From Thermoanaerobaculia bacterium (GTDB lineage: Bacteria; Acidobacteriota; Thermoanaerobaculia; Multivoradales; UBA5704), in NCBI GenBank assembly GCA_044226625.1, contig JBGAGQ010000017.1:23978-87977 (forward strand): a stretch of 64,000 bases of DNA, read 5' to 3'. Shown here piece after piece: positions 11,195 to 25,157 of this stretch. A program made the translations under genes and the position numbers. The notes under the pieces were generated by a model, which searched no databases, was not told the origin of the DNA, and was given only the letters and a program-made list of their open reading frames with translations. Each line of letters starts with the position of its first letter. The first letter of the stretch is position 1.

Positions 11195-11307
11195 CCCTCG
11201 CTTCGAACATTGAGTCCGCGTGAGCGCGCGGGGCGAAGACTTCGACGCCTTTCGGTGCGCAGAGGGTGTCGCGTACCCGGCGGAATTCCCTCGTATACTC
11301 CCACGCC

Positions 11308-12333
11308 ATGTCCATTACCTTTGGAATCTTCTTCGGTTTCGTGACCTGGTTCATCGTCCGCTACCTGCTCGCCGGCCTGTACACGGTCGACCAGAACGAG
11401 CGGGCGGTCAAAACCGTGCTCGGGCGCGCCCAGCGGTTGCCCGGACAGTCGACGTTGCAGGACCCGATCGCGCAGGCCCTGCGGCCCGACGAACGCGATC
11501 GCTACAACTACCCGCAGGTGCGCGTGATCCCGCCGGGCGGCCCCTATTTCCGCTGGCCCTGGGAGCGCGTGCACAAGATCTCGGTCGCGACCAACACGCT
11601 CAACATGGCGTTCGATCCCGAAACGCCGAGCGCGAACTCCGGCGGCAAGCTGCTCGAGGCGGTCACGAAGGACCAGCTCAACACGGGGCTCACCGGGCAG
11701 ATCCGGTATCGGGTCTCCGAGCGGAATCTCTACGCCTATCTGTTCGGGGTGAAGAACCCGATCGCCCACGTGATGGGATATTTCGTCTCGATCCTGCGGG
11801 AGCGCATCTCGAATTTCGAGGCGCCGCATCCGTCGGGGCCGGTCGATCTGGAGAATCCGGTGAGCCCGCCGGTCCAGCTCGAGAGCCAACCTCCCGAGGC
11901 GACCGTCGTTTCCGGCATCTCGATCAACGACCTGCGCAAGAACCTTCGCGATCTGAACGATCACATGGACCGGGAGTGCCGCTCGTCCGCCGCTCGCTAC
12001 GGCATCACCCTCGACGCCTCCTTGATCACCGAGATCGATCCGCCAGCGGAGGTCGAATCCGCGCTGGCCGCGATCAACACCGCGCACAACCACGTCTCCT
12101 CGGACATCAGCCTGGCGCACGCGGCGGCGGACCAGAAGATCGTCCAGTCCAAGCGCGCGGTCGAGATCGAAACGCTCAAGGCGGAGGGTGAGGTCGAGCC
12201 GCTGGTGCGGCTCGCCGAGCAGCTCTCCGATTTGAAGAGGCAGGGACCGCATGCCCTCTCGGCGTACCTGAGGAACGTGCGGCTCGGCCTGTTCGGCAAG
12301 GCGCAGGACGCCTTCGTGGAGGTGAAGCGATGA
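11308..12333 (+). CDS. SPFH/Band-7 domain membrane protein (HflK/HflC/stomatin-like) 1
   Basis: ORF 11266..12333 trimmed to ATG 11308 (MSITFGIFFGFVTWFIV TM anchor). This is followed by YTVDQNERAVKTVLGR, typical of SPFH N-termini, and a coiled C-terminal region. Confidence 0.8.
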   Translation: MSITFGIFFGFVTWFIVRYLLAGLYTVDQNERAVKTVLGRAQRLPGQSTLQDPIAQALRPDERDRYNYPQVRVIPPGGPYFRWPWERVHKISVATNTLNMAFDPETPSANSGGKLLEAVTKDQLNTGLTGQIRYRVSERNLYAYLFGVKNPIAHVMGYFVSILRERISNFEAPHPSGPVDLENPVSPPVQLESQPPEATVVSGISINDLRKNLRDLNDHMDRECRSSAARYGITLDASLITEIDPPAEVESALAAINTAHNHVSSDISLAHAAADQKIVQSKRAVEIETLKAEGEVEPLVRLAEQLSDLKRQGPHALSAYLRNVRLGLFGKAQDAFVEVKR

Positions 12334-13223
12334 GCTTCCTGATCGCTGCGTTCGTCACGTTCCTCGTGATGATGTTCCTGGTGCCGTTTCTCCTCTGGGT
12401 GGTGCGCGTCCTCGGCCTTTACGCGATCGTCTACGAGCGGACCTGCCGCGTCTACGTGTTGTTCGGCAAGGTGATCGGTGTCCTCGACGAGCCGGGCCTC
12501 CACATCCTGCTGTTCAAGCTCGGACCGGCGGCGTTCCTGGTCAACTGGCTGGGCAAGTGCCACGTGCTCGACATGCGCCTCGATCAGGAATACTTGCGAA
12601 GCCAGCCGGTCAACTCCGAGGAAGGCGCGCCGATGGGGATCGGCGTCTGGTACGAGATGTACATCTCGGATCCGGTCGCCTTCCTGTTCAAGAACACCGA
12701 TCCCCGCGGCTCGCTGCGCGCCAACGTCAGCAACGCGACGGTCCGTTGCCTGTCGAACATGAAACTCGCCGACATGCTGGAGACGCGCCATCAGATGAGC
12801 GCCACGGTGCGCGCCGAGGTGTCGGAGAAGTCGCACGAGTGGGGGTACAAGCTCGGCTCGGTCTACGTCCGCAAGGTCCACTTCCGCGACGGCGGCATGA
12901 TCCGGCAGATCGAAGAAAAGGTGGTCAACCGTCTGCGCCAGGTCACCTCGGCGATCAAGCAGGACGGCGCTAATCAAGTGAGCATCATCACCAGCACCGC
13001 CGAGCGCCAGGCGGCGATCGAGTTCGCCAAGGCGAGCGCGATGCGACCGCAGATCGTCGGCGCCGCCTTGAACCAGATCTCGAAGGATCCGGAGATCGAG
13101 GCCGCCCTCTTCGAGATCCTCGAAAATCAGCGCTTGGTCGAGGGGAACGCGCGCGTCACCCTGATGCCCGAGGGAGGCGAGCTGCTCACGAACCTGCTCG
13201 CGGGCGGAGCGAAGCGCCTCTGA
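12330..13223 (+). CDS. SPFH/Band-7 domain membrane protein 2
   Basis: 297 aa. N-terminal TM, SPFH core (VYERTCRVYVLFGKV..., GYKLGSVYVRKVHF) and an Ala/Glu-rich tail. ATGA overlap with the preceding SPFH gene. Confidence 0.8.
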   Translation: MSFLIAAFVTFLVMMFLVPFLLWVVRVLGLYAIVYERTCRVYVLFGKVIGVLDEPGLHILLFKLGPAAFLVNWLGKCHVLDMRLDQEYLRSQPVNSEEGAPMGIGVWYEMYISDPVAFLFKNTDPRGSLRANVSNATVRCLSNMKLADMLETRHQMSATVRAEVSEKSHEWGYKLGSVYVRKVHFRDGGMIRQIEEKVVNRLRQVTSAIKQDGANQVSIITSTAERQAAIEFAKASAMRPQIVGAALNQISKDPEIEAALFEILENQRLVEGNARVTLMPEGGELLTNLLAGGAKRL

Positions 13224-13304
13224 TCCGAGCCGAGAGAGGGGCGCCGGTCTCGAACGGTCGGCGCCCCTCGAAGCCTTCCCGCCTCCGAGGCTCCTTTCCT
13301 TTCG

Positions 13305-14375
13305 ATGAACGCCGCCAAGACCGTCACGCCGTCGCAGTTGATGGACTTCCTGCTCAACGTGGCGGTCGTCCGTCCGGTCTTCATTTGGGGGCCGCCGGGG
13401 ATTGGCAAATCGAGCCTGGTCGCTCGGTTCGCCGAGCAGCTGGGCCTGCACTGCGTTTCCCTCCTCGGCAGCCAGCTCGCGCCGGAGGACCTGATCGGCG
13501 TGCCGCAGGTGACCGACGGCGTGAGCCGCTTCTGCCCCCCGGCCGAAATCGCGCGGAACGAGCCGTACTGCCTCTTCCTCGACGAGCTAAACGCCTGCTC
13601 GCACGAGGTTCAGAAGGCGTTCTACAGCTTGATCCACGAGCGCCGGATCGGCGAGTACCGCCTGCCCGAAGGGTCGATCGTGATCGGCGCCGGGAACCGG
13701 GCCCAGGACAGCGCGATCGTCAAACCGATGTCATCGGCGCTGCTGAATCGGATGGTTCACGTCCACCTGACCGTTTCGCACCGCGACTGGATGGCCTGGG
13801 CGCACACGAGCGACGTCCACCCGTTGGTGATCGAATACCTCGAGCTTCGTCCCGATCAGCTCTGGAGCGCGCCGCCTAAACACGAGGAGCCGTTTTCGAC
13901 CCCGCGTTCTTGGCACATGTTGAGCGACGCGCTTCATCAGTTCGGGGCGGGCATCCGCGACGAGGAGATCGAAGCGCTCGCTTACGGTTGTCTTTCACCG
14001 CAGCACGCGACGCAGCTCAAGGCGTTCGCCAAGCAGAAGCGAAGCCGTTTCGCGCTCCATGCCATCTTGAAAGGCGATTCCGGGTGGCCGCACGATCCGG
14101 CGGACCGCGATGTCCTCTACTTCCTCTCGCAGTCGTTTCGGACGCATCTGCAGCGCGAGCTGCCGCAAGATCCGCAGGGACTTCAGCCGCAGCACAAACA
14201 GCTTGCCCATCGCGGCAAGGCACTGCTCAAGGAGCTGGCCGCGATCAGCCTGGAGATGGCGCAGTTGGTCGTGGCGGAGGAGGGTGGCGACGCCGCGGCG
14301 GGGAACCTGCCGAGCTGGTTCCTGGTCGAGGTCGTTCGCGACCTGCCGCGCTTGGTCGAGAAACGTGCCCCGTAA
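13305..14375 (+). CDS. MoxR-like AAA+ ATPase (AAA_5 type)
   Basis: Walker A WGPPGIGKSS, Walker B CLFLDELN, sensor region GAGNRAQDSAIVKPMSSALLNRM. Confidence 0.85.
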   Translation: MNAAKTVTPSQLMDFLLNVAVVRPVFIWGPPGIGKSSLVARFAEQLGLHCVSLLGSQLAPEDLIGVPQVTDGVSRFCPPAEIARNEPYCLFLDELNACSHEVQKAFYSLIHERRIGEYRLPEGSIVIGAGNRAQDSAIVKPMSSALLNRMVHVHLTVSHRDWMAWAHTSDVHPLVIEYLELRPDQLWSAPPKHEEPFSTPRSWHMLSDALHQFGAGIRDEEIEALAYGCLSPQHATQLKAFAKQKRSRFALHAILKGDSGWPHDPADRDVLYFLSQSFRTHLQRELPQDPQGLQPQHKQLAHRGKALLKELAAISLEMAQLVVAEEGGDAAAGNLPSWFLVEVVRDLPRLVEKRAP

Positions 14376-16185
14376 ACCGGAAAAGCGGCGCGAGGACCCG
14401 GCCGATCAGGCGTATCGGGAGGGGACCGACGCGATCCGCAATCATCCGCTGTTCCTGCCGCTCACCTTTCGCACGGACTTCTACCGCAACGTCCACCAAA
14501 ACCTCTGCCCGCCGGGTGGTTGGGCGGTCGCCAACGTGCGGGGCCTCGTCTACTGCCACCCCAAGCGGCGGGCGAGCCCGGAGGAGTGGACCTGGGTGAT
14601 CGGACACTGCCTGCTCCACTATGGATTCGGGCATTTTCAGACTCGAGCCCGTCCCGACCTTTGGAACGTTGCCTGCGACTTCTTCATCGACCGCTTTCTC
14701 GCCGATTTGAAGCTGGGCCGGCGCCCCGCGGAGATCCCCGAGCTGAAGCTTCCACCCGGGGCGCCCGCGACCTCGGAAAACGCGCTGTACGACTGGCTGT
14801 TCGAAAACGGCGTTCCCGTGGAGCTTCGCGGCGGCGGGACCGCCGGACCGGGAGCGTTGGACCTTTCGTTCGAGGTGGACCGATGGCGGGGCAAGCTCAC
14901 GCCATACGGCAAAGAGTGGAGGGACGCGCTGGGCGCGGGGCTGCGCAACGCCGTCGCAGCGGCGGTCGACGTCGCGGGAGGTAAAGCGGCGAGCCTCACC
15001 GGGGCTACGGGGCCGACCACTCCTGCCCAACGCGGAAGGTCTTGGTTCATGACCCGCTATCCGCTGCTGGGAGCGCTCGCGGCCTCGTTCCGGCTGATCG
15101 AAGACGGCGAGGTCTGCCGCCGCCTGGACGTCCACGTGGCGGCGGTCGACGCCGAGGCGCGCGAGCTCTACGTCAACCCGCAGATCGGCATGGACGACGG
15201 CGAGGCTCGCTTCGTGATGGCTCACGAGCTGCTGCACGTTGGCCTCCGCCATCAGGCTCGCTGCCAGGGGCGCGATCCGTTCCTCTGGAACGTCGCGTGC
15301 GACTACGTCATCAATGCCTGGTTGGTGGAGATGGACGTGGGACGGCCGCCGGCTTTCGGAGTGCTGCTCGATCCGGAGCTGAAGGGGCTTTCGGCGGAAG
15401 CGATCTACGACCGGATCGTCGGCGACCTCCGCCGGTTTCGGAAGATTTCGACCTTGCGCGGTGTGGGCGTCGGCGACATCCTTCCGGGCAGAAACCCGCG
15501 CTGGTGGCAGGTAGGGGAGGGGGTGGCGCTCGATGAGCTCTACCGCAACTGCCTGACCCAGGGGCTGCTCTGGCACCGCGACCAATGTCGCGGTCTCCTC
15601 CCCGCCGGCCTGATCGAAGAGATCGAGGCGCTCGCGCAGCCGGTGATTCCGTGGGACGTGCAGCTTGCGCAGTGGTTCGATCACCGGTTCCCGCCCAAGG
15701 AGAAACGGCGCACCTATGCCCGTCCGAGCCGGCGCCAGATGGCGACTCCCGATCTGCCGCGACCTCGCTTGGCGCCCCTCGACGACGGCTCGATCCGCAC
15801 CTTCGCGGTGGTCCTCGATACCTCCGGAAGCATGGATCGGAAGCTCCTGGCCAAGGCGCTCGGCGTGATCGCGAGCTATGCCGCCTCGCACGAGGTCGAC
15901 GCCGTGCGGCTCGTGTTCTGCGACGCCGCCGCGTACGACGAGGGCTACGTCCGTGCGGAGGACATCGCGGGCCGGGTGCGGGTCAAGGGCCGCGGCGGCA
16001 CCGTCCTCATGCCCGGTATCGAGCTCCTCGAGAAGGCCCCGGATTTTCCGCGAAGCGGGCCGATCCTGTTGATCACCGACGGTTTCTGCGACGACCTCAC
16101 GATTCGCCGTGACCACGCCTATCTCGTGCCGGCGGGGAACTCTCTGCCCTTCTCTCCACGAGGTCCGGTGTTCGGGATTTCGTGA
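14365..16185 (+). CDS. VWA-domain protein with tandem DUF2201_N-type zincin-like domains (MoxR partner)
   Basis: Track ORF 14110..16185 trimmed to in-frame GTG 14365, overlapping the MoxR stop. HELLH at 15223..15237. A degenerate HCLLH at 14605..14619. C-terminal VWA with MIDAS residues (VLDTSGSM, GGT, ITDG). Confidence 0.8.
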   Translation: MPRKPEKRREDPADQAYREGTDAIRNHPLFLPLTFRTDFYRNVHQNLCPPGGWAVANVRGLVYCHPKRRASPEEWTWVIGHCLLHYGFGHFQTRARPDLWNVACDFFIDRFLADLKLGRRPAEIPELKLPPGAPATSENALYDWLFENGVPVELRGGGTAGPGALDLSFEVDRWRGKLTPYGKEWRDALGAGLRNAVAAAVDVAGGKAASLTGATGPTTPAQRGRSWFMTRYPLLGALAASFRLIEDGEVCRRLDVHVAAVDAEARELYVNPQIGMDDGEARFVMAHELLHVGLRHQARCQGRDPFLWNVACDYVINAWLVEMDVGRPPAFGVLLDPELKGLSAEAIYDRIVGDLRRFRKISTLRGVGVGDILPGRNPRWWQVGEGVALDELYRNCLTQGLLWHRDQCRGLLPAGLIEEIEALAQPVIPWDVQLAQWFDHRFPPKEKRRTYARPSRRQMATPDLPRPRLAPLDDGSIRTFAVVLDTSGSMDRKLLAKALGVIASYAASHEVDAVRLVFCDAAAYDEGYVRAEDIAGRVRVKGRGGTVLMPGIELLEKAPDFPRSGPILLITDGFCDDLTIRRDHAYLVPAGNSLPFSPRGPVFGIS

Positions 16186-16557: not shown

Positions 16558-16720
16558 GACGCGATCTCCGGTGCCCGTCCGTCGAGAATCATTTCTCGCC
16601 GGCTGACGGGGAAGATCCGGTCAGGCGTCCGATGGGTTAGTGCATTCCAAAGTCGAAAAGCCGCGCCGTCGTCGATCCTTCGGCTCCGGTCCGTGTCAAG
16701 ATCGCTCCCGGAGGAGCACC

Positions 16721-17383
16721 ATGAAACCATCCACCAAGAAGGCGATTCGCTGGACGGCGATCGGTCTGGGCCTGGTCGTCGTCGCGGGCGTCACCTGGGC
16801 CTTGGTCACGATCGGACCGAGCAACGTCTGGGGAATGCTGCGCTACGACACGCGGAAAGAGGGGAAGCTTCAGGTCGGGGACTCGGCGCCCGATGTGGCG
16901 CTCCTCGCGCTCGACGGGAAGACGCGCGTCCACCTGCGCGAACGGGTGGGTGAACGGCCGCTCATCGTCATCTTCGGCAGCTACACCTGACCGCCTTTCC
17001 GGCGCTCGGTCGAGCGCCTCATCGATCTCCACCGCCGCTACGGCGACAAGGCCACGTTCGTCGCGGTCTACATCCGCGAAGCGCATCCGACCGACGAGTG
17101 GCAGATGGAAAGCAACGAAAAGGAAGACGTCTGCTATCCGCAGCCAAAGAGCACCGCGGCGCGGGTGGCGATTGCGAACGATTTCGTCCGCCGCTTCCAC
17201 TTTCCAATCCCGCTTTTGGTCGACCCGATCGAGAATCCGGCAGACAAGGTCTACGCCGGTTGGCCCGAGCGCTTCTATGTGATCGACGAGCAAGGGACGA
17301 TCGTCTACAAGGGAAAGACCGGCCCGTTCGGATTCCACCCCGAAGAAGTCGACGCCTGGCTCGCGAAGCGGTTCGCGAGCTGA
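16721..17383 (+). CDS. Iodothyronine-deiodinase-like thioredoxin-fold selenoprotein (Sec encoded by TGA 16988..16990)
   Basis: Track ORFs 16640..16990 and 17105..17383 share one frame, and TGA 16988 is the only stop between them. Read-through gives LIVIFGSYT-U-PPFRRS, then VAVYIREAHPTDEWQ and ERFYVIDEQGTIVYKGKTGPFGFHPEEV. GGAGGAG RBS before ATG 16721. N-terminal TM helix. Confidence 0.85.
17001..17018 (+). promoter_or_regulatory. Bacterial SECIS-like hairpin for UGA 16988
   Basis: GGCGCUC-GGUC-GAGCGCC, a perfect 7-bp stem starting 10 nt after the UGA. The GGUC apical loop resembles the E. coli fdhF SECIS loop as I recall it. Confidence 0.65.
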
Positions 17384-17511: not shown

Positions 17512-18396
17512 ATGAGCGTCGACAGCTTCCGCTTTGCCTCGCCGTTGATCAAGCGGTACTACCAGATGAGCCGGGTGACGAGGGAGCTGCCGATTCCTTT
17601 CACACGGCCGAGAAAGCCCATCTCTGAAAGTCGGATCTCGCTCGTCACGACGGGGGGCCTCTACCGCCGTGGCCATGACGAGCCGTTCGATCAAGACCGC
17701 GAGCGGCGCGAGCCGGCGTGGGGCGATCCGAGCTACCGCGCGATCCCGACCGACGTCGACTTGGCGGAGCTCGCGGTGGGCCATCTCCACATCAACCCGG
17801 ACGACCCCTCCGCCGATCCGAACATCCTCCTTCCGATCGACCGGATCAAGGAGCTCGTTGCGGACGGCAAAGTCGGCAGCCTCGGCGCCCGCGCCTACTC
17901 ATTCATGGGATACCAGGGCTTTCCCGCCGATCCTTCCGGTTGGAAGAAGATCTATGGACCGGAGGTGCTCGCGGCGCTCCAGGCCGATCGCGTGGACGCC
18001 CTCCTGCTCACCTCGGCCTGACTGGAGTGCGCGGCCAACGTGCCCGTGTTGGCACGTCTGTTCGAAGGCGGGGGGATCGCCACGGTCGTCGTGACCAACA
18101 TGCCCTTCTGGGCCGAACGGGTCGGAACCCCGCGAACGCTCGCCGTCGAGTTTCCTTTCGGTCACCCGCTCGGCGGCACGCACGATCGAGAGATGCAGCG
18201 GCGGGTGATCCTGGCGGCGCTCGAGCTCATCGAGCGAGCGAGCGCGCCGGGGGAGATCGAAGAGTTTCCGGAGAAGTGGGGCGGCTCGGTCGCCGAAGGG
18301 CGACGGATCTCCGAGCCGCGAATCCCCGCGCCGATCACCGCCCAGATGGGGCGCCACATCGGCGCGTTCCTGCGCGGCATGCGGCGTTCGGCCTGA
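17512..18396 (+). CDS. GrdB/PrdB-family (glycine/sarcosine/betaine/proline reductase component B-like) selenoprotein (Sec at TGA 18019..18021)
   Basis: Track ORFs 17512..18021 and 18040..18396 are in the same frame, separated only by TGA 18019. Read-through gives VDALLLTSA-U-LEC-AANVPVLARLFEGGGIATVVV and EFPFGHPLGG. This parallels the GrdB LTSTU-GTC...ERAGIPVV...PHPLGNP layout. Confidence 0.75.
18034..18053 (+). promoter_or_regulatory. SECIS-like hairpin for UGA 18019
   Basis: GCCAAC-GUGCCCGU-GUUGGC, a 6-bp stem beginning 12 nt after the UGA. The loop starts with G-U. Confidence 0.5.
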
Positions 18397-18490: not shown

Positions 18491-21199
18491 ATGAAAGTCA
18501 CCTTCGCGTATGCCGCCTTCGTGCGCCGATTCCTCTTTGCCTTCTCGTTCCTCTTCTTCTGCGGCGCCACGCTTCTCGTTCCTTTCGCCCGCGCCGTTTC
18601 CGGCGCGGCCAGCTCATCCCTTTCCGTGGAGCCGGTGGCGGACCTCGGCCCCCGGCCGGCGATTTCCCTGCGGACTTTGCCGCGGGGCGCGGTGCGAGTC
18701 GGGGACCGGATCTTCTTCTTCGCCTCGGACGAGGTATCACGTTCGGAGCTCTGGACCACCGACGGAACGCAGACGGGCACGCGGCGAGTCCTGGACGTCT
18801 CCGCCCTGGGAGTCGATTCCTCGATCGTCAGCGGGTCCGGACTGGTGGCGGCGCAAGGAAGGGCCTACTTTCAAACCCTCGATCCGCTCGCGGGCTTGCG
18901 GATCTGGAGGAGCGACGGCTCGCGAGAGGGGACGGTGCCGTTCTTCTCGTTGGATCTCTTCGATGACTTGGAACAGGCGCAGCCGCCGGAAGTCGTGACA
19001 GCGGCGTTGGGTCGTGATCTCCTATTCCTGAGGACGGGCGAGGAAGGGTTGTGGGACCTGTGGCGCACCGACGGCTCGCCGTCCGGGACTCGCCGTCTGG
19101 TGTCGCTGCCGGCTCCGTCGGCCTCGAGCTCCGGTGGGAGCCAGTTCTTTGAGGCGAAAGGGCGCGCGTATTTCGCGTTGCAAGATCAGTTCTCGACGGT
19201 GACGGATCTGTGGACGACCGCCGGAACGGCGGCCGGCACGGTTCGGCTCGCTTCCGTCCCTTCGCTACCGTCGGCACCGCGCCAGCCGGTCGCCGTGGGG
19301 GGGCGTCTCTTCTTCATCGGTTTCGAAGCGGATCACGGATTCGAGCTTTGGACCTCCGACGGCTCGCCCGCGGGTACGCGGATCGTCCGCGATCTGACGC
19401 CGGGACGGCGCAGAACGTTCTTCGAGCAGTTCTTTCCAGGACGGCGCGCCCTCTATTTCACCCTGTCAACGCCGAGCGGAAGGGAGCTTTGGCGGAGCGA
19501 CGGCAGCGAAGCCGGCACTTCCCGCCTGTCGACGGTCGACGGCACATTCGCCACACCCGCCGCGGAGGTCGAGGGCTCGCTGCTGTTCTTTCAGGCCGGC
19601 ACGCTCTGGCGCGCGCGCGGGACGGGCTCACCCCAACGTCTCGCACCGCGCCTCGATCCGTGCGGCCCGTCGGTCCTGGCCGCGGGCCGGTTCGAATTCT
19701 TCGCCGACGACGGCGCACGCGGCTGCCGTCTCTGGCGGAGCGACGGCACCGCCGGGGGTACCGTCCCGGCGGTCGCTTCACCAACCGATGCGTCGGAGGG
19801 GACGCTGGTCGCGCTCGAAGATCGTTTGGTCCTCTTCTCTCCCAACCTGTCGGAAATCCAGGTGATCGCCGGGGACCGCGTCATCCCGCTCCGGCGTCCG
19901 CGGGCCGAGCTTCGGTCGGGCGCCCCGACGTTCCTGGTCCCTTGGCAGGGCGGCATCGCCTTCGCGGCGAACGGCACGTCCCGTCGCGCGATCTACCGCT
20001 CCAACGGCACGGCGACGGGAACCCTTCCGATCGCCTCCGGGGACCTCTGGTCGCCGCTCTTCCTCGGTCTGCCTAGCGACCTCATTCCGCTGGGTGAAAA
20101 CCTCGCGTACCTGTCGCTCGATGGAGTCGGGTCTTCCGGTTCTTCACTTTCGGATACGAACCCAAAGCAGCTCGACGGCTATCCGGTCGGCGCCGCTCAT
20201 GACGGGCGCGTGCTCTTTTCCTTCGCCGGCCGCGCCTATTGGCTCACGCTCTCGGCCGACGGCCGCGACGTCGAGTTGCGAAGCACCGATGGCACGGAGG
20301 CGGGAACGGCGACCGTGAGCCGCCTCTTCGACGCGCCCGTCTCGCCGTTCGGTGGCGTGACCTACGTGCCCGATTTCTTCGTCGTCCGAGCTGAGCGCTA
20401 CCTCGCCTTCTTTTTCCCGGTCAACCCCAACGAGGTGTGGACGACCGACGGTACGGCGGCCGGTACGCGGAAAGCGGTTCGCCTCGACGGGCTCCACGAC
20501 GGCTTTCTGCACGCCGGGGTGGCGTTCGGCGACGGGATGCTGTTCTCGACTTGGGCGACCCAATCGCAACCTCGGATCTGGCTCACCGACGACTCGGCCC
20601 AAGGCGCTCATCCGATCGACAACTTGGCTATCCATTCCCTCGATCAGCGCCTGACTGCCGTGGGCCGCCTCGCGTTCTTCACCGCGAGGGATGGGGGAGG
20701 GGTGGAGCTTTGGGCGACCGATGGAACACCTTCGGGAGCTCATCGGGTTCGCGACATCGCGTCCGGGCGGCGCGGCTCGTATCCGCGCGACCTGACCGCC
20801 GTGGGCGATCGGCTGTTCTTCACCGCCGACGACGGAGCTTCCGGCCGCGAGCTCTGGTCGAGCGACGGCACGGCCGCGGGGACCGTCCGAGTCGCCGATC
20901 TGGTTCCCGGCCCCGGGGGCTCCTTCCCGCAAAAGCTGGCGGCCGTTTTGACCGAAGGTCCCGCCCCCGTGCTCGCCTTCGCGGCGAACGACGGCGTTCA
21001 CGGCCTGGAGCCCTGGCTCCTCGAAGCCGACGGAACGAGCGTCCGAATGTTGGCGGACGTGGCCCCCGGCTTCACCTCTTCGAGCCCGGCGGAATTCCTT
21101 TCCGTAGGCGCTCACCTCTATTTTGCCGCCACGACGCGTGCCACGGGACGGGAGCTTTGGAAGGCGACGCTCCAAGACCCTGAAAACACAACGCCTTAG
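18491..21199 (+). CDS. Secreted ELWxxDGT-repeat protein
   Basis: 902 aa. N-terminal signal-like hydrophobic region. About 15 copies of the (E)LWxxDG(T/S)xxGT motif (ELWTTDGTQTGT, ELWTSDGSPAGT, ELWATDGTPSGA, ELWSSDGTAAGT and others). Confidence 0.85.
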   Translation: MKVTFAYAAFVRRFLFAFSFLFFCGATLLVPFARAVSGAASSSLSVEPVADLGPRPAISLRTLPRGAVRVGDRIFFFASDEVSRSELWTTDGTQTGTRRVLDVSALGVDSSIVSGSGLVAAQGRAYFQTLDPLAGLRIWRSDGSREGTVPFFSLDLFDDLEQAQPPEVVTAALGRDLLFLRTGEEGLWDLWRTDGSPSGTRRLVSLPAPSASSSGGSQFFEAKGRAYFALQDQFSTVTDLWTTAGTAAGTVRLASVPSLPSAPRQPVAVGGRLFFIGFEADHGFELWTSDGSPAGTRIVRDLTPGRRRTFFEQFFPGRRALYFTLSTPSGRELWRSDGSEAGTSRLSTVDGTFATPAAEVEGSLLFFQAGTLWRARGTGSPQRLAPRLDPCGPSVLAAGRFEFFADDGARGCRLWRSDGTAGGTVPAVASPTDASEGTLVALEDRLVLFSPNLSEIQVIAGDRVIPLRRPRAELRSGAPTFLVPWQGGIAFAANGTSRRAIYRSNGTATGTLPIASGDLWSPLFLGLPSDLIPLGENLAYLSLDGVGSSGSSLSDTNPKQLDGYPVGAAHDGRVLFSFAGRAYWLTLSADGRDVELRSTDGTEAGTATVSRLFDAPVSPFGGVTYVPDFFVVRAERYLAFFFPVNPNEVWTTDGTAAGTRKAVRLDGLHDGFLHAGVAFGDGMLFSTWATQSQPRIWLTDDSAQGAHPIDNLAIHSLDQRLTAVGRLAFFTARDGGGVELWATDGTPSGAHRVRDIASGRRGSYPRDLTAVGDRLFFTADDGASGRELWSSDGTAAGTVRVADLVPGPGGSFPQKLAAVLTEGPAPVLAFAANDGVHGLEPWLLEADGTSVRMLADVAPGFTSSSPAEFLSVGAHLYFAATTRATGRELWKATLQDPENTTP

Positions 21200-21380
21200 A
21201 AATGGGGACGGGGGCCTGACCGCGTTTTCAAGGCGCCATGGCATGAAGGCTGCACTTTATCGAGGGCGGAACCGGCCCCCGAGAGGGTCGGACATGAATC
21301 CAAACGAAGGCCGCGGTTCCCATTGCTTGCGATTCGGAGATTTCGTTGCGAGCTGCGGTCGAGAGAAAAGGAGACATGGC

Positions 21381-21788
21381 ATGCGAACCCTGAAATCGAC
21401 ACTTTACGTACTTGGTACGGCGGCGTTGCTTACGCTTCCGTTGCAGGCCAACGCGGCGGCGGCCCCTCCGATGAAGACTCCTCCCGCGACCACGGCACCT
21501 GCGGCGCCGGCGGAGAACGTCCAAACCTGGACCGGCTGGATCACCGACAACTGCGACGGCGTGCATGGCGCGTCGGCCGACAACACCAAGGCGAAGGTTC
21601 AGGGTTGCAAGGAACGCGGCGGTCGCGTGGTGTTCTACAACCTCTCGGACAAGCGTTTCTACGATCTCGACAATCTCGACCTCGCGCTGGACAACGTCGG
21701 TCACCTGGTGACCGTGAAGGGAGTCCGGGACTACAACCTGATCAAGGTCGACTCGATCGTTCCGGACGGCGCGCAGAATCCAAGCTAA
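21381..21788 (+). CDS. Small secreted hypothetical protein (135 aa)
   Basis: Track ORF 21123..21788 trimmed to ATG 21381, preceded by AAAGGAGA. Signal peptide MRTLKSTLYVLGTAALLTLPLQANA. Followed by a strong intrinsic terminator. Confidence 0.6.
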   Translation: MRTLKSTLYVLGTAALLTLPLQANAAAAPPMKTPPATTAPAAPAENVQTWTGWITDNCDGVHGASADNTKAKVQGCKERGGRVVFYNLSDKRFYDLDNLDLALDNVGHLVTVKGVRDYNLIKVDSIVPDGAQNPS

Positions 21789-21828
21789 CGAGCTTCCCGG
21801 CCGGTTAACCGGCTCTCCTCCCCGCTCC

Positions 21829-21863
21829 GCGCGGTGCCTCCCCTCCGGCACCGCGCTTTTTTT
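21829..21863 (+). terminator. Rho-independent terminator
   Basis: gcgcggtgcc / ggcaccgcgc perfect 10-bp stem with an 8-nt loop, followed by TTTTTTT. Confidence 0.8.
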
Positions 21864-22001
21864 AGGCCCCTTTCCAGCGCAAGCGCTTCTTCGCGTTCGT
21901 GCTATCCTCCCCGCACTACTTTCGGTAGAGCTTTTCGGATCCCTCGTCCTTCTCGACGCCCGCTCGGGCGCCAAGGTTGGAGATTTCCTGGGAGGTCTGC
22001 G

Positions 22002-25000
22002 ATGGCGTTCAAGCGGTGGCTCTGGTCCGTCTTCTTTCCGCTGTTCGTCGCCTTGACGCTTCCCGCGTTCGGGCCGGTCACCGAGGTCGGCGCGCAGCCC
22101 GCGATTCCCTCGGGCGACATCTGCTCGGCGGACCTCCCGCTTCCCAGCGCTTTTCCCGCGAACAAGTCGGAGTACGAGATCATCCTCGGCCGCTTTTTCC
22201 GGGCGAAGTGTTACGAGAAGCTCGGTTGGCCGCACGATAAGCAGTTGCGGCCCACAGGGCCGACGGTGGCGGCGCTCGCCGCCGGAACGACCGATCCTCA
22301 CATGCCGCCCGCCTGGCAGACGACCACGCTCGGCACCCACACCACCGTGGTCATCTACTACTCGCCGGACGTCTTTCGCTGGATGTGCGAGACCGAGGCG
22401 CGGCACGATCCGAAATTCGTCGCCCAGTGCAAGGTGCGCTGCCCGACCTGCAGGCTCGAATCGGAAGGTACGGTTGCGCCGATCGCGCCGATCGCCGACG
22501 GCTCGATGATCATCAAGCTGATGTACGGCGCGACATCGGCCGAGGATCTCGAGAACCCGCAGGTGCCGACCGGCGAGGCGAACATGTTCGCCCACATGGT
22601 CAAAGACGCGAAGGCCTCGAAGGACGGTTGGTTCTGGGGCAACTGGGATCCGCAGGCGACCGAGTTCTCGCAGCTCGACTGGCCGCCGCCGGTGAACCTG
22701 CCGTATCCGTGGATGGGCTTCGGCTACTACTGCATGAACTGCCACGCCTCGGCCAAAGCCGAGTCGACGTTCTCGGATCTCAACAACGTGCTCGGCGACC
22801 CGGACACGTTCACCAAGTTCTATTTCCAGGACCAGCCGCCGATTCCTACGGTCGGGGCCAAAGAGCCGCCACCGATCGAGATGAAGTCGGCGCACGAGCG
22901 GTTCGAGGCGCTCCAGAACCTTCAGGCGCTCGGCACCGGCCCGCTGTGGAACGAGGTTCCCTGGCCGAACTCGGCGGTCAACCGGGTGAGCCAGCCCTCT
23001 TCGACCTATCGGCAGAGCTTCCTTTCGACCTACGGCGCGAAGCGGATCGTGCCTCCCGATTCGAAGACGATCCTGCCGCTCTACATGCCGCCTGAAGTTT
23101 ACGACCACCGATTCCCCGGGCCCGTGGCGCCGCCGCCGTTCATGACCTCCGATCAGTGCGTCGGCTGCCACGCGGCGGGCTCGACCGGTATCCACTTCGA
23201 CATGACGGTCCAGAAGCCCGATCAGCCGGCGTTCACCAACCTGGTGAACATCGCCGAATACGGCGAGTGGCGCAGCTCGCCGATGGGGCTCGGTGGGCGC
23301 GATCCGATCTTCTTTTCCCAGCTCGAAACGGAGCAGGCGGCGCACCCCGCGCTCGCGAAGCTCGCGCCCGACCTCTGCCTCCATTGCCACGGCGTCATGG
23401 GGCAGCGGCAGTTCTGCCTCGACCAGTTCCCCGACCGCGAGAAAGGGAACGCCGTCTGCAACAACACGGACCTCCTGGGGTTGAACCAGGACTCGCAGCC
23501 GATCGTGCCGCGGCGCCTGTTCACGCGCGAGCAGGTGAACGCCATCCCGTTCCGGGCGAAGACCGAACAGGACTTGCAGAACGCCAAATACGGCGGTCTC
23601 GCGCGCGACGGGATTTCGTGCACCACCTGCCACCACATCGAGATCGATCCGAAGACTCCCATCGGCCACACCTTCACCGGCGATTTCCGGACCGGTCCGG
23701 ACGACGTCCTCCACGGGCCGTTCGACAAGCCGCAGCAGGTGCCGATGGATCACACGCTCGGCAGCAAGCCGATCGAGTACCCGCTGATCCGCTCGTCGAA
23801 AGTCTGCGGTAGCTGCCACAGCGTCGTGCTCCCCGTGTTCGACGGCGACAAGCCGTGGGTGCGCCCCGGCGGCAAAAAGCCGGAGATCATCATCGAGCAG
23901 GCGACCTATCCGGAGTGGGTCTTCAGCGACTTCCGCGACGACGGGCCGACGCCGCGCTCCTGCCAGAGCTGCCACATGGCGTCCTCCTACCCGGGGCTGC
24001 CGTCGCCACTTACGAGCAAGATCGCCTCGATCCAAGAGGCGAGCAACATGCCGCAGACGGAGAACCGTCTTCCGCAGTCCGACATCGACCTCCAGCCGCG
24101 CTCGCCCTACGGCCGGCACACGCTGGTCGGTCTGAACGTCTTCTTCAACCAGTTCGCCCAGCAGTTCCCCGACATCCTCGGCATTCGGATTCAAGATCCG
24201 ATGCTCGGTGGCACCGGCATCGCGCCGCTCACCACCACCTACAACTCGATGATTCAGCAGGCGGACACGGGGACCGCGACGGCGGAGGTGACGGGCGTGC
24301 GGCAGACGGCGGATGCGCTCGTGGCGGACGTCAAAGTCACGAACCTCGCCGGGCACAAATTCCCCTCCGGCGTCGGCTTCCGTCGCGCGTTCCTGACCTT
24401 CGAGGTGCTCGATTCGGCGGGCAACGACCTTTGGATCTCCGGCCGCAGCACGGACGACGGCGTGATCGTCGGGCCGGACGGCTCGCCGATCGCGGGCGAG
24501 TTCATGTGGGGCAACGAGTGCACACCAGTCCCGGGCAAGGACCAGAAAACCCAGCCGCATTACGAGACGATCACCCGGCAGGATCAGGTCCAGATCTATC
24601 AGGAGCTGGTACGCGACCCGCGCGGCCGGCTCACCACGAGCTTCCTTTCGCTCGCGAACGAAGTGAAGGACAACCGCCTCCTACCGCGGGGCTGGACGCC
24701 GAGCGTCCAGCTGGCGGAGATGGACGGCCTCGGCAGCCCCAAGCTCTCCGCCGCGGCTCTCGTCCACCGCGTGCTCCCTGACCTGCCCGACGGCAAAGGC
24801 GGGACGGTCGACGACCCCTGGTACAAGCCGGTCTCTGAAGGGGGCAAAGGCGGGGGAGGGGACGAGCTGGTCTACGCCGTGCCGCTCAAGGATCTCAAAG
24901 GAACCGCGGTCTCCGTGCGCGTCACCCTCTACTACCAGTCGATTCCGCCGTTCTACCTCCAGGACCGCTTCTGCTCGACCCCGAACCGGCCGGACACCTC

Positions 25001-25157
25001 ACGCCTCTTCTTCCTCGCCGGGCACACGGACCTCTCCGGAACCCGGGCCGAAGGGTGGAAGCTCTCGGTGGTCTCGTCGGGGAGGGTGGCGGTGGAAACG
25101 AAGGCGGCGTCCGTCGAGCCTCCGCGAGAAGCGAGGCGTGGGGGTGGGAGTCGGTAG
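22002..25157 (+). CDS. Large secreted multiheme c-type cytochrome (six CxxCH)
   Basis: Track ORF 21834..25157 trimmed to ATG 22002 (GGGAGG RBS; signal peptide MAFKRWLWSVFFPLFVALTLPAFG). Heme motifs CMNCH, CVGCH, CLHCH, CTTCH, CGSCH, CQSCH. Confidence 0.85.
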   Translation: MAFKRWLWSVFFPLFVALTLPAFGPVTEVGAQPAIPSGDICSADLPLPSAFPANKSEYEIILGRFFRAKCYEKLGWPHDKQLRPTGPTVAALAAGTTDPHMPPAWQTTTLGTHTTVVIYYSPDVFRWMCETEARHDPKFVAQCKVRCPTCRLESEGTVAPIAPIADGSMIIKLMYGATSAEDLENPQVPTGEANMFAHMVKDAKASKDGWFWGNWDPQATEFSQLDWPPPVNLPYPWMGFGYYCMNCHASAKAESTFSDLNNVLGDPDTFTKFYFQDQPPIPTVGAKEPPPIEMKSAHERFEALQNLQALGTGPLWNEVPWPNSAVNRVSQPSSTYRQSFLSTYGAKRIVPPDSKTILPLYMPPEVYDHRFPGPVAPPPFMTSDQCVGCHAAGSTGIHFDMTVQKPDQPAFTNLVNIAEYGEWRSSPMGLGGRDPIFFSQLETEQAAHPALAKLAPDLCLHCHGVMGQRQFCLDQFPDREKGNAVCNNTDLLGLNQDSQPIVPRRLFTREQVNAIPFRAKTEQDLQNAKYGGLARDGISCTTCHHIEIDPKTPIGHTFTGDFRTGPDDVLHGPFDKPQQVPMDHTLGSKPIEYPLIRSSKVCGSCHSVVLPVFDGDKPWVRPGGKKPEIIIEQATYPEWVFSDFRDDGPTPRSCQSCHMASSYPGLPSPLTSKIASIQEASNMPQTENRLPQSDIDLQPRSPYGRHTLVGLNVFFNQFAQQFPDILGIRIQDPMLGGTGIAPLTTTYNSMIQQADTGTATAEVTGVRQTADALVADVKVTNLAGHKFPSGVGFRRAFLTFEVLDSAGNDLWISGRSTDDGVIVGPDGSPIAGEFMWGNECTPVPGKDQKTQPHYETITRQDQVQIYQELVRDPRGRLTTSFLSLANEVKDNRLLPRGWTPSVQLAEMDGLGSPKLSAAALVHRVLPDLPDGKGGTVDDPWYKPVSEGGKGGGGDELVYAVPLKDLKGTAVSVRVTLYYQSIPPFYLQDRFCSTPNRPDTSRLFFLAGHTDLSGTRAEGWKLSVVSSGRVAVETKAASVEPPREARRGGGSR

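Follow-up and report, generated by a model that had tools for sequence, protein, structure and literature searches.

What is encoded at a locus where one open reading frame ends at a TGA and a second, in the same frame, is listed a little further on? The question is raised by a stretch of 64,000 nt (hereafter the window) from contig JBGAGQ010000017.1 of a Thermoanaerobaculia bacterium, in which the open reading frame list gives two plus-strand fragments, 16640..16990 and 17105..17383. We think it very probable that 16721..17383 is one gene that has been mis-split, and that its product is a membrane-anchored, selenocysteine (Sec)-containing relative of the deiodinase family. An initial annotation of this DNA had proposed that the two fragments share a frame and are split by a single TGA at 16988..16990, and this is what the list and the translation both give: from 16721 to 17383 on the plus strand there are 220 codons, and TGA 16988..16990 is the sole internal stop, in the context IVIFGSYT*PPFRRSVER (asterisk, the TGA). 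The features on which the argument turns are these.

16710..16716, plus strand: Shine-Dalgarno-like GGAGGAG, read from the sequence, 4 nt upstream of the ATG at 16721
16721..17383, plus strand: predicted deiodinase-like selenoprotein coding sequence, complete, 220 codons including Sec90, stop TGA 17381..17383
16751..16819, plus strand: predicted N-terminal hydrophobic helix of the signal-anchor type, about residues 11-33, from Kyte-Doolittle hydropathy; K2, K6, K7 and R10 precede it
16988..16990, plus strand: in-frame UGA, predicted Sec90, in the motif FGS-Y-T-U-P-P-F; TGA in 81 of 81 sequences
17001..17018, plus strand: candidate bacterial Sec insertion sequence (SECIS) hairpin, 7-bp stem GGCGCUC/GAGCGCC, apical loop GGUC at 17008..17011, identified by folding, covariation and frozen synonymous sites
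17132..17134, plus strand: TGC codon of Cys138, candidate resolving cysteine; C in 79 of 79 orthologues

The start of the gene is likely ATG 16721, not the GTG at 16640, because GGAGGAG precedes that ATG and because the five closest orthologues (L001-L005) likewise have an N-terminus that starts MK[PT]...

The reading frame and its relatives

Is the TGA a stop, or is it read through? In a genomic scan of one genome per GTDB species we found 540 stretches encoding a relative, and the best 80 of these were examined as loci (numbered with the prefix L); alignment-based counts use 79 orthologues, and the TGA count uses the window plus the 80 loci, or 81 sequences. For these best 80 of the 540, the tblastn matches run over residues 1-220, spanning the stop, at 59-84% identity. 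Nearly all of the 80 loci lie in Acidobacteriota metagenome-assembled genomes (MAGs; Thermoanaerobaculia, Holophagales), with a few labelled Polyangiaceae, Planctomycetota or Pseudomonadota. The same codon is TGA in all 80 loci, and hence in 81 of 81 sequences with the window. The protein is conserved on both sides of that codon among the orthologues, and residues 80-220 are highly conserved.

A search of a database of 5.8 billion proteins tells a related story. With few exceptions the nearest relatives, at 66-83% identity, are fragments, 121-161 residues long, that cover just the C-terminal 48-56% of the query. There are more than 100 close homologue clusters of such fragments, and these are therefore the downstream halves of genes that have been split likewise. 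Full-length homologues are more distant (50-57% identity) and have Cys or Trp at the Sec column. Cys is found in P0002-P0005, in the motif FG(S/G)FTCPPF, and Trp in the five calls P0001, P0006-P0008 and the N-terminally truncated P0010. The Trp residues in these five, and in a homologue of the neighbouring gene described below (P0221), are probably products of gene calls made with a code in which TGA is Trp, a practice that hides selenoproteins as ordinary full-length proteins. The expectation of the initial annotation that standard gene callers would split or truncate the gene is thus borne out by the fragment clusters and by the five calls with W at the TGA. One of the Cys homologues, P0005, lies on a 1,159-bp Joint Genome Institute (JGI) contig and retains RRSVER, the peptide that overlaps the SECIS hairpin in the Sec forms; P0005 may be a recent Sec-to-Cys conversion.

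If the TGA were a true stop, the locus would hold either a pseudogene or two genes, one for an 89-residue membrane peptide and one for a fragment starting at ATG 17105. Gene callers do treat the locus in this way, and most of the database homologues are fragments of the corresponding kind. Such a reading has to contend, however, with a TGA that occupies the identical codon in every one of the 81 sequences from different species, and with conservation on both sides that includes the catalytic FGS.T right before the TGA. By itself the C-terminal fragment would be without the half of the fold that holds the active site; there are full-length Cys forms; and the putative start, Met129, is a conserved internal residue of a WQM motif and has no Shine-Dalgarno sequence. 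We regard a true stop as scarcely credible.

To what family, then, does the read-through protein belong? Profile searches were run with U replaced by C. The search against Pfam T4_deiodinase that the initial annotation had suggested gave a clear match (PF00837, E 5.7e-36, 124.5 bits against a cut-off of 27), with residues 45-217 on profile positions 68-236 of 237. The Pfam models of the wider superfamily, Redoxin (37.1 bits) and AhpC-TSA (30.5 bits), match more weakly, yet above their cut-offs; NCBIfam ResA reaches 22.9, short of its cut-off of 170. NCBIfam NF038285, 'deiodinase family protein' (deiodinase_rel), is matched at 205 bits (E 2.2e-60), which is below its cut-off of 250, and the match is not full-length: the C-terminal 160 residues of the window protein lie on profile positions 177-338 of 347, whereas about 175 N-terminal positions are missing and a single membrane helix stands in their place. 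The best sequence matches in the PDB are mouse Dio2 (9h48, E 2.3e-22) and mouse Dio3 (4tr3, E 8e-22), with 150-164 residues aligned and few gaps over Dio3 chain residues 19-178 and Dio2 chain residues 40-191. On these sequence comparisons the read-through protein is assigned to the deiodinase family.

The initial annotation had also read the active-site signature FGSYT-U-PPF and two further blocks typical of vertebrate deiodinases, and all three are present in the read-through translation. The first block, VYIREAHPTDEW, aligns with YIEEAHPSDGW of Dio3, and the second, ERFYVIDEQGTIVYKGKTGPFGFHPEEV, with a second Dio3 block of 28 residues. The window protein thus shares with the vertebrate enzymes Dio1-3 (4TR3, 9H48) the FGS.TUPPF motif, the EAHP.D.W block and the (F/P)ER.Y block, along with one N-terminal membrane helix.

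The fold was approached through the Cys homologue P0005, which is 57% identical to the window protein. An AlphaFold model of P0005, built on a 43-sequence alignment, has a predicted local distance difference test score (pLDDT) of 89.6 and a predicted template modelling score (pTM) of 0.84. When this model of the homologue was compared with the PDB by Foldseek, Dio3 and Dio2 came first (E 5e-14 and 1e-13; TM 0.78-0.80), and the next fold class consisted of ResA, DsbE, Etrx and 1-Cys peroxiredoxin (Prx) types, from E 4e-9. The sequence alignments and the model of the homologue support a thioredoxin/peroxiredoxin-type fold with a deiodinase-specific insertion for the window protein.

The catalytic residues can be followed through the clade. 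Invariant among the 79 Sec forms are F85, G86, S87, T89, U90, P91, P92 and F93 around the Sec codon; Y117, E120, A121, H122, D125, E126 and W127; and C138, Y139, Q141, P142, W181, P182, E183, R184, G201 and P202. A proton relay proposed for Dio2 is made up of Ser127, Thr129, Tyr157, Glu160, His162 and His182, and His202 and Arg275 of Dio3 are proposed to form a thyronine-binding clamp (PMC11592359). Five of the six relay residues are retained and are invariant in the clade (S87, T89, Y117, E120 and H122). The Dio3 His202 equivalent is retained as H122 and Arg275 is not, so that the clamp is not preserved. Dio3 Cys239 and Cys168 have no counterparts in the window protein, which has another invariant cysteine, Cys138. 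This residue sits in the deiodinase-specific insertion and is missing from the Cys forms P0002-P0004, which have VVYAQP there.

The hairpin and the decoding of the UGA

How might a ribosome be made to read this UGA as a sense codon? The initial annotation had described a perfect hairpin, GGCGCUC-GGUC-GAGCGCC, beginning 10 nt past the UGA, and had likened its loop and spacing to those of the Escherichia coli fdhF SECIS. The hairpin is there, at 17001..17018; its stem follows the UGA by 10 nt and its loop by 17 nt, and its predicted energy in the window sequence is -14.3 kcal/mol. In a published model of the bacterial SECIS (bSECIS) the stem is 4-16 bp, the loop is 3-9 nt with a G in position 1 or 2, the UGA-to-loop distance is 16-37 nt and the energy is -7.5 kcal/mol or lower (PMC13188914, Fig. 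2). A 7-bp stem, a 4-nt GGUC loop starting GG, a distance of 17 nt and the energy just given all fall inside these ranges.

The comparative evidence is stronger. Given 79 sequences, RNAalifold returned, unprompted, a 6-bp stem with the GGUC loop, and this core hairpin reaches -7.5 kcal/mol or lower in 78 of the 79. For the 7-bp stem, 86% of cells are paired, against 31-67% in slid-partner controls. Double-sided changes occur in three of the seven pairs (pair 19-26 is UA, GC or UG; pair 18-27 is CG or GC; pair 15-30 is GC, CG or AU), and the covariation score was reached by none of 500 shuffles. In three loci (L062, L065 and L069) the change of a U-A pair to G-C alters the protein, replacing Ser96 by Ala and Glu98 by Ala. 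The codons of the core are frozen: R95 is CGC in 98%, S96 is UCG in 99%, V97 is GUC in 99% and E98 is GAG in 100%, whereas at nearby Arg, Val and Glu positions the top codon accounts for just 45-87%. The SVER peptide itself is lost in three of the four Cys forms. The hairpin at 17001..17018 is conserved, it covaries and it fits the bacterial SECIS model; it is under selection at the RNA level.

How closely does it resemble the fdhF element? Our fdhF SECIS query, which matched fdhF in E. coli genomes at 100%, gives on folding an apical GGUC loop at a distance of 18 nt from the UGA. Both hairpins directly follow the UGA and share the GGUC tetraloop, with the loop at 17 nt in the window and at 18 nt in fdhF, so that the likeness in loop and spacing holds. 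Unlike the fdhF element, the window hairpin has as its stem a perfect 7-bp G+C-rich helix without the bulged U (fdhF U17), and it has no extended lower stem reaching back to the UGA. The bulged U17 of fdhF contributes to SelB binding.

A scenario for decoding is that the hairpin forms just downstream of the ribosome during translation, and that its GGUC apical loop would bind SelB·GTP·Sec-tRNA(Sec). Sec would then be delivered to UGA 16988..16990 in competition with RF2, as in E. coli fdhF. We infer from the sequence features that insertion at this UGA is SelB-dependent.

Support for this scenario is to be found next door, where the following feature adjoins the deiodinase-like gene.

17512..18396, plus strand: predicted PrdB/GrdB-like selenoprotein gene with in-frame TGA 18019..18021, motif TSA-U-LEC (UxxC), identified by translation, profiles and homologues

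This second gene has a single in-frame TGA, in the context ...LLLTSA-U-LEC..., and is matched by Pfam GRDB (E 3.3e-9) and, at 118.7 bits where the equivalog cut-off is 300, by NCBIfam PrdB. Its close homologues are almost all exactly 169 residues long, that is, cut at the TGA, and its full-length relatives have at the Sec position Cys (P0132, CPDC) or Trp (P0221). A hairpin with the loop GUGCCCGU, which starts GU, lies 18 nt after its UGA. Of the selenoproteins known from bacteria, the PrdB-like UxxC proteins rank with the most abundant (PMC2398784), and Acidobacteria were recorded as having selenoproteins in a 2006 census (PMC1794560). With two selenoprotein genes predicted side by side, it is very likely that the genome decodes UGA as Sec. 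The PrdB-like gene is syntenic with the deiodinase-like gene in none of the 80 related loci.

Might another tRNA decode the UGA? An opal suppressor, an allo-tRNA or a tRNA(Sec)-like tRNA(Cys) would put Cys, Trp or some other residue at position 90. Acidobacteria are reported to have unusual allo-tRNAs of the suppressor type, and other phyla tRNA(Cys) of the SelC* type (PMC5389517); moreover, the failure to find tRNA-Sec and sel genes in the window and the 80 loci, detailed below, is what such decoding would allow. The hairpin argues otherwise: it has the GGUC loop and the spacing of a SECIS that binds SelB, and it is under RNA-level selection, whereas a general suppressor would need no hairpin at all. 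General suppression would also be costly, because TGA is the stop codon that ends the window gene itself and 54 of the 79 orthologues; for the same reason the codon has not been reassigned. The adjoining UxxC gene, from a classic selenoprotein family, has the same arrangement, and the deiodinase-like family has been published as a selenoprotein family (PMC1088965). Decoding by a tRNA other than tRNA(Sec) is, in our judgement, very unlikely.

Several observations nevertheless weigh against a Sec-containing deiodinase relative at this locus, and we bring them together here. As to the machinery, which was sought in the 64-kb window and about 1.4 Mb of related loci, ARAGORN found no tRNA-Sec in the window or the 80 loci, and tblastn with E. 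coli queries found no SelA, SelB or SelD in the window and loci at E <= 1e-5. As to the RNA, the hairpin is not the unique optimum in the single sequence, an alternative fold reaching -14.7 kcal/mol against -14.3, and its z-score against shuffles is only -1.7 to -1.9; because the single-sequence fold is so unremarkable, the weight of the hairpin rests on comparison. Rfam gave no SECIS match, either at gathering thresholds over the whole window or at E-value thresholds over 16850..17150; its sole match was a chance small nucleolar RNA (E 2.6). Rfam is not known to hold a general bacterial SECIS model, and we treat its outcome as uninformative. As to the protein, the structure model is that of the homologue P0005 and not of the window protein; the sixth relay residue, Dio2 His182, aligns with the invariant Pro142; and Dio3 Arg275 aligns with Thr200, a position at which 60 of the 79 orthologues have Pro and 16 have Thr. 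Finally, clustering of neighbours within ±5 kb gave no conserved neighbourhood with a functional hint, no neighbour family being present in more than 18 of the 79 loci.

In the course of the tRNA search a 98-nt ARAGORN call in L022 (7366..7463, 'tRNA-Ala(tgc)') was set aside as probably spurious, given its unusual length and the look of its sequence. A scan of the window for other read-through TGAs, by G+C content at third codon positions (GC3) on both sides, gave nothing convincing beyond 16988, with a filter so insensitive that it missed the PrdB-like gene.

Orientation, chemistry and substrate

On which side of the membrane would a Sec90 enzyme work? Residues 13-31 have a mean Kyte-Doolittle hydropathy of 2.28, an N-terminal helix is predicted in 67 of the 70 orthologues with enough N-terminal sequence, and the P0005 model has an N-terminal helix at residues 3-25. 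The initial annotation had ascribed to the protein the topology of the eukaryotic deiodinases. In architecture, with one N-terminal helix, this stands. The orientation is another matter, as the mean flanking charge is +2.8 ahead of the helix and +1.6 behind it, which mildly favours an N-in arrangement with the catalytic domain outside the cytoplasm. The catalytic domains of mammalian Dio1 and Dio2 face the cytosol, so that the orientation may be the opposite of theirs. In ResA/TlpA-type proteins an N-terminal anchor is followed by a thioredoxin-fold domain outside the cytoplasm.

What reaction might the enzyme carry out? By homology with the deiodinases, the Sec90 selenolate would be tuned by the conserved network of Ser87, Thr89, Tyr117, Glu120 and His122 and would attack an electrophilic atom of the substrate, giving a selenenyl intermediate, which is probably resolved to a selenenyl-sulfide by the invariant Cys138. 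An external thiol reductant would then regenerate the enzyme.

Thyroid hormone is not the expected substrate. Candidates are a halogenated phenolic, reduced by a deiodinase-type dehalogenation, a peroxide and a disulfide. Dehalogenation of halophenols is mildly favoured because the deiodinase-specific catalytic residues and block are retained; peroxide or disulfide chemistry is about equally possible. The latter two deserve a fuller hearing. Could the same gene, with the same Sec recoding, encode an extracytoplasmic thiol-disulfide oxidoreductase or a peroxidase, of the ResA/TlpA or the peroxiredoxin type, with no dehalogenase chemistry at all? Redoxin and AhpC-TSA score above their cut-offs, the ResA, DsbE, Etrx and 1-Cys Prx types are the next structural neighbours of the P0005 model, and an N-terminal anchor with a thioredoxin-fold domain is also how ResA/TlpA proteins are built. 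The deiodinase Arg275 and relay histidine are replaced, and the authors who first described the bacterial family proposed 'a redox function' (PMC1088965). Set against this, the protein has neither CxxC nor UxxC, because in U-P-P-F the residue at +3 is the invariant Phe93. The clade has also kept both the deiodinase-specific insertion and the EAHP.DEW block without variation, and no ResA or Prx matches nearly as well as Dio2 and Dio3 do. Peroxidase or disulfide chemistry remains compatible with all of this, and we give an oxidoreductase or peroxidase a substantial chance, if somewhat less than an even one.

The likeness to ResA, TlpA and CcmG is one of plan: an anchor and then a thioredoxin-fold domain, a place as second-best structural neighbours and a weak NCBIfam ResA match. 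The window protein differs from them in lacking CxxC, in having Sec for Cys and in its deiodinase-specific insertion, and identity is just 13-22%.

A bolder scenario may be offered for the deiodinase-family selenoprotein. The soil Acidobacteriota clade might consist of extracytoplasmic anchored selenoenzymes that dehalogenate natural iodinated or brominated phenolics by way of Sec90 and Cys138, an activity ancestral to that of the animal thyroid-hormone deiodinases. We consider this unlikely as it stands; if true, it would supply a selenium-dependent step in soil iodine and organohalogen cycling.

Neighbouring genes, known relatives and significance

The surroundings of the gene can be described briefly. 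Among the related loci the recurrent neighbours, by inspection of their sequences, are look-alikes of an OmpR-type response regulator, an aminotransferase and an M20-type peptidase. The OmpR-type look-alike, recognized by eye, occurs in 18 of 79 loci, upstream of the deiodinase-like gene and in divergent orientation, and is absent from the window; in L035, for example, it is a 353-residue minus-strand open reading frame with its ends 979 nt before and 80 nt beyond the Sec codon.

In the window itself, upstream of the selenoprotein genes, 11266..16185 on the plus strand holds two Band 7/SPFH genes, a MoxR-type AAA ATPase gene (13305..14375) and, at 14110..16185 (plus strand), a gene for a protein with DUF2201 metallopeptidase and VWA-like domains; together they look like a module of the MoxR-VWA type. 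Downstream, 18491..21199 (plus strand) encodes a 902-residue ELWxxDGT-repeat protein (NCBIfam TIGR04534, E 6e-114, seven stretches) with an N-terminal hydrophobic segment and no Pfam match. Beyond it, two open reading frames of about 1,100 residues lie on opposite strands in nearly full overlap (21228..24560, minus; 21834..25157, plus), and the one on the minus strand has no Pfam or NCBIfam match.

What does the window gene add to what was known? Bacterial deiodinase-like selenoproteins, with Cys homologues and a bacterial SECIS, were described from the Sargasso Sea by Zhang, Fomenko and Gladyshev in 2005, who suggested a redox function other than hormone deiodination (PMC1088965). A 2008 analysis of Global Ocean Sampling (GOS) data counted 22 Sec forms and 21 Cys forms (PMC2398784), and reviews of 2022 and 2026 list the family with its motif given as UxxC (PMC9312934, PMC13188914). 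Our literature search found no biochemical study of a bacterial deiodinase-like member, and no paper linking Thermoanaerobaculia with selenoproteins. The family has thus been known since 2005, and the window gene adds a member to it.

Like the published members, the window gene has a PF00837 domain, an in-frame UGA at the deiodinase active-site position, Cys homologues and a bacterial-type SECIS immediately downstream. The published sequences, 4 and 22 in number, came from marine metagenomes, in contrast to the window clade, which is mostly from Acidobacteriota MAGs (540 matches, GTDB species genomes). The motif also differs, UxxC in the reviews against U-P-P-F with an invariant distal Cys138 in the window clade, a comparison made by description only; U-P-P-F is the form found in vertebrates. 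From the vertebrate enzymes, in turn, the window gene differs in its SECIS, a short in-frame hairpin and not an element of the 3' untranslated region, and its protein differs in the two substitutions noted above, Dio3 Arg275 to Thr (Pro or Thr in the clade) and Dio2 His182 to an invariant Pro.

The additions are modest ones. The Sec form appears to be uniform across a large, mainly Acidobacteriota clade, in all of the best 80 of 540 loci; the motif is UPPF with a distal invariant Cys, as against the UxxC of the reviews; and the predicted SECIS, with its fdhF-type GGUC loop, is very well conserved. The 81-sequence alignment of UGA and hairpin is a clean example of a covarying SECIS that could train a model. 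In kind, what is known of the family is unchanged by the window gene.

For the bacteria, the consequences are of two sorts. The gene is systematically mis-annotated, with more than 100 close clusters truncated and a few carrying a false Trp, and the selenoproteomes of Acidobacteriota are therefore undercounted. To judge from the 540 matches in GTDB species genomes, one bacterial lineage commonly carries deiodinase-like enzymes. The clade retains most of the deiodinase catalytic network and is without the Arg proposed to bind hormone, and for this reason it is a candidate system in which to ask what use deiodinase chemistry had before there were thyroid hormones.

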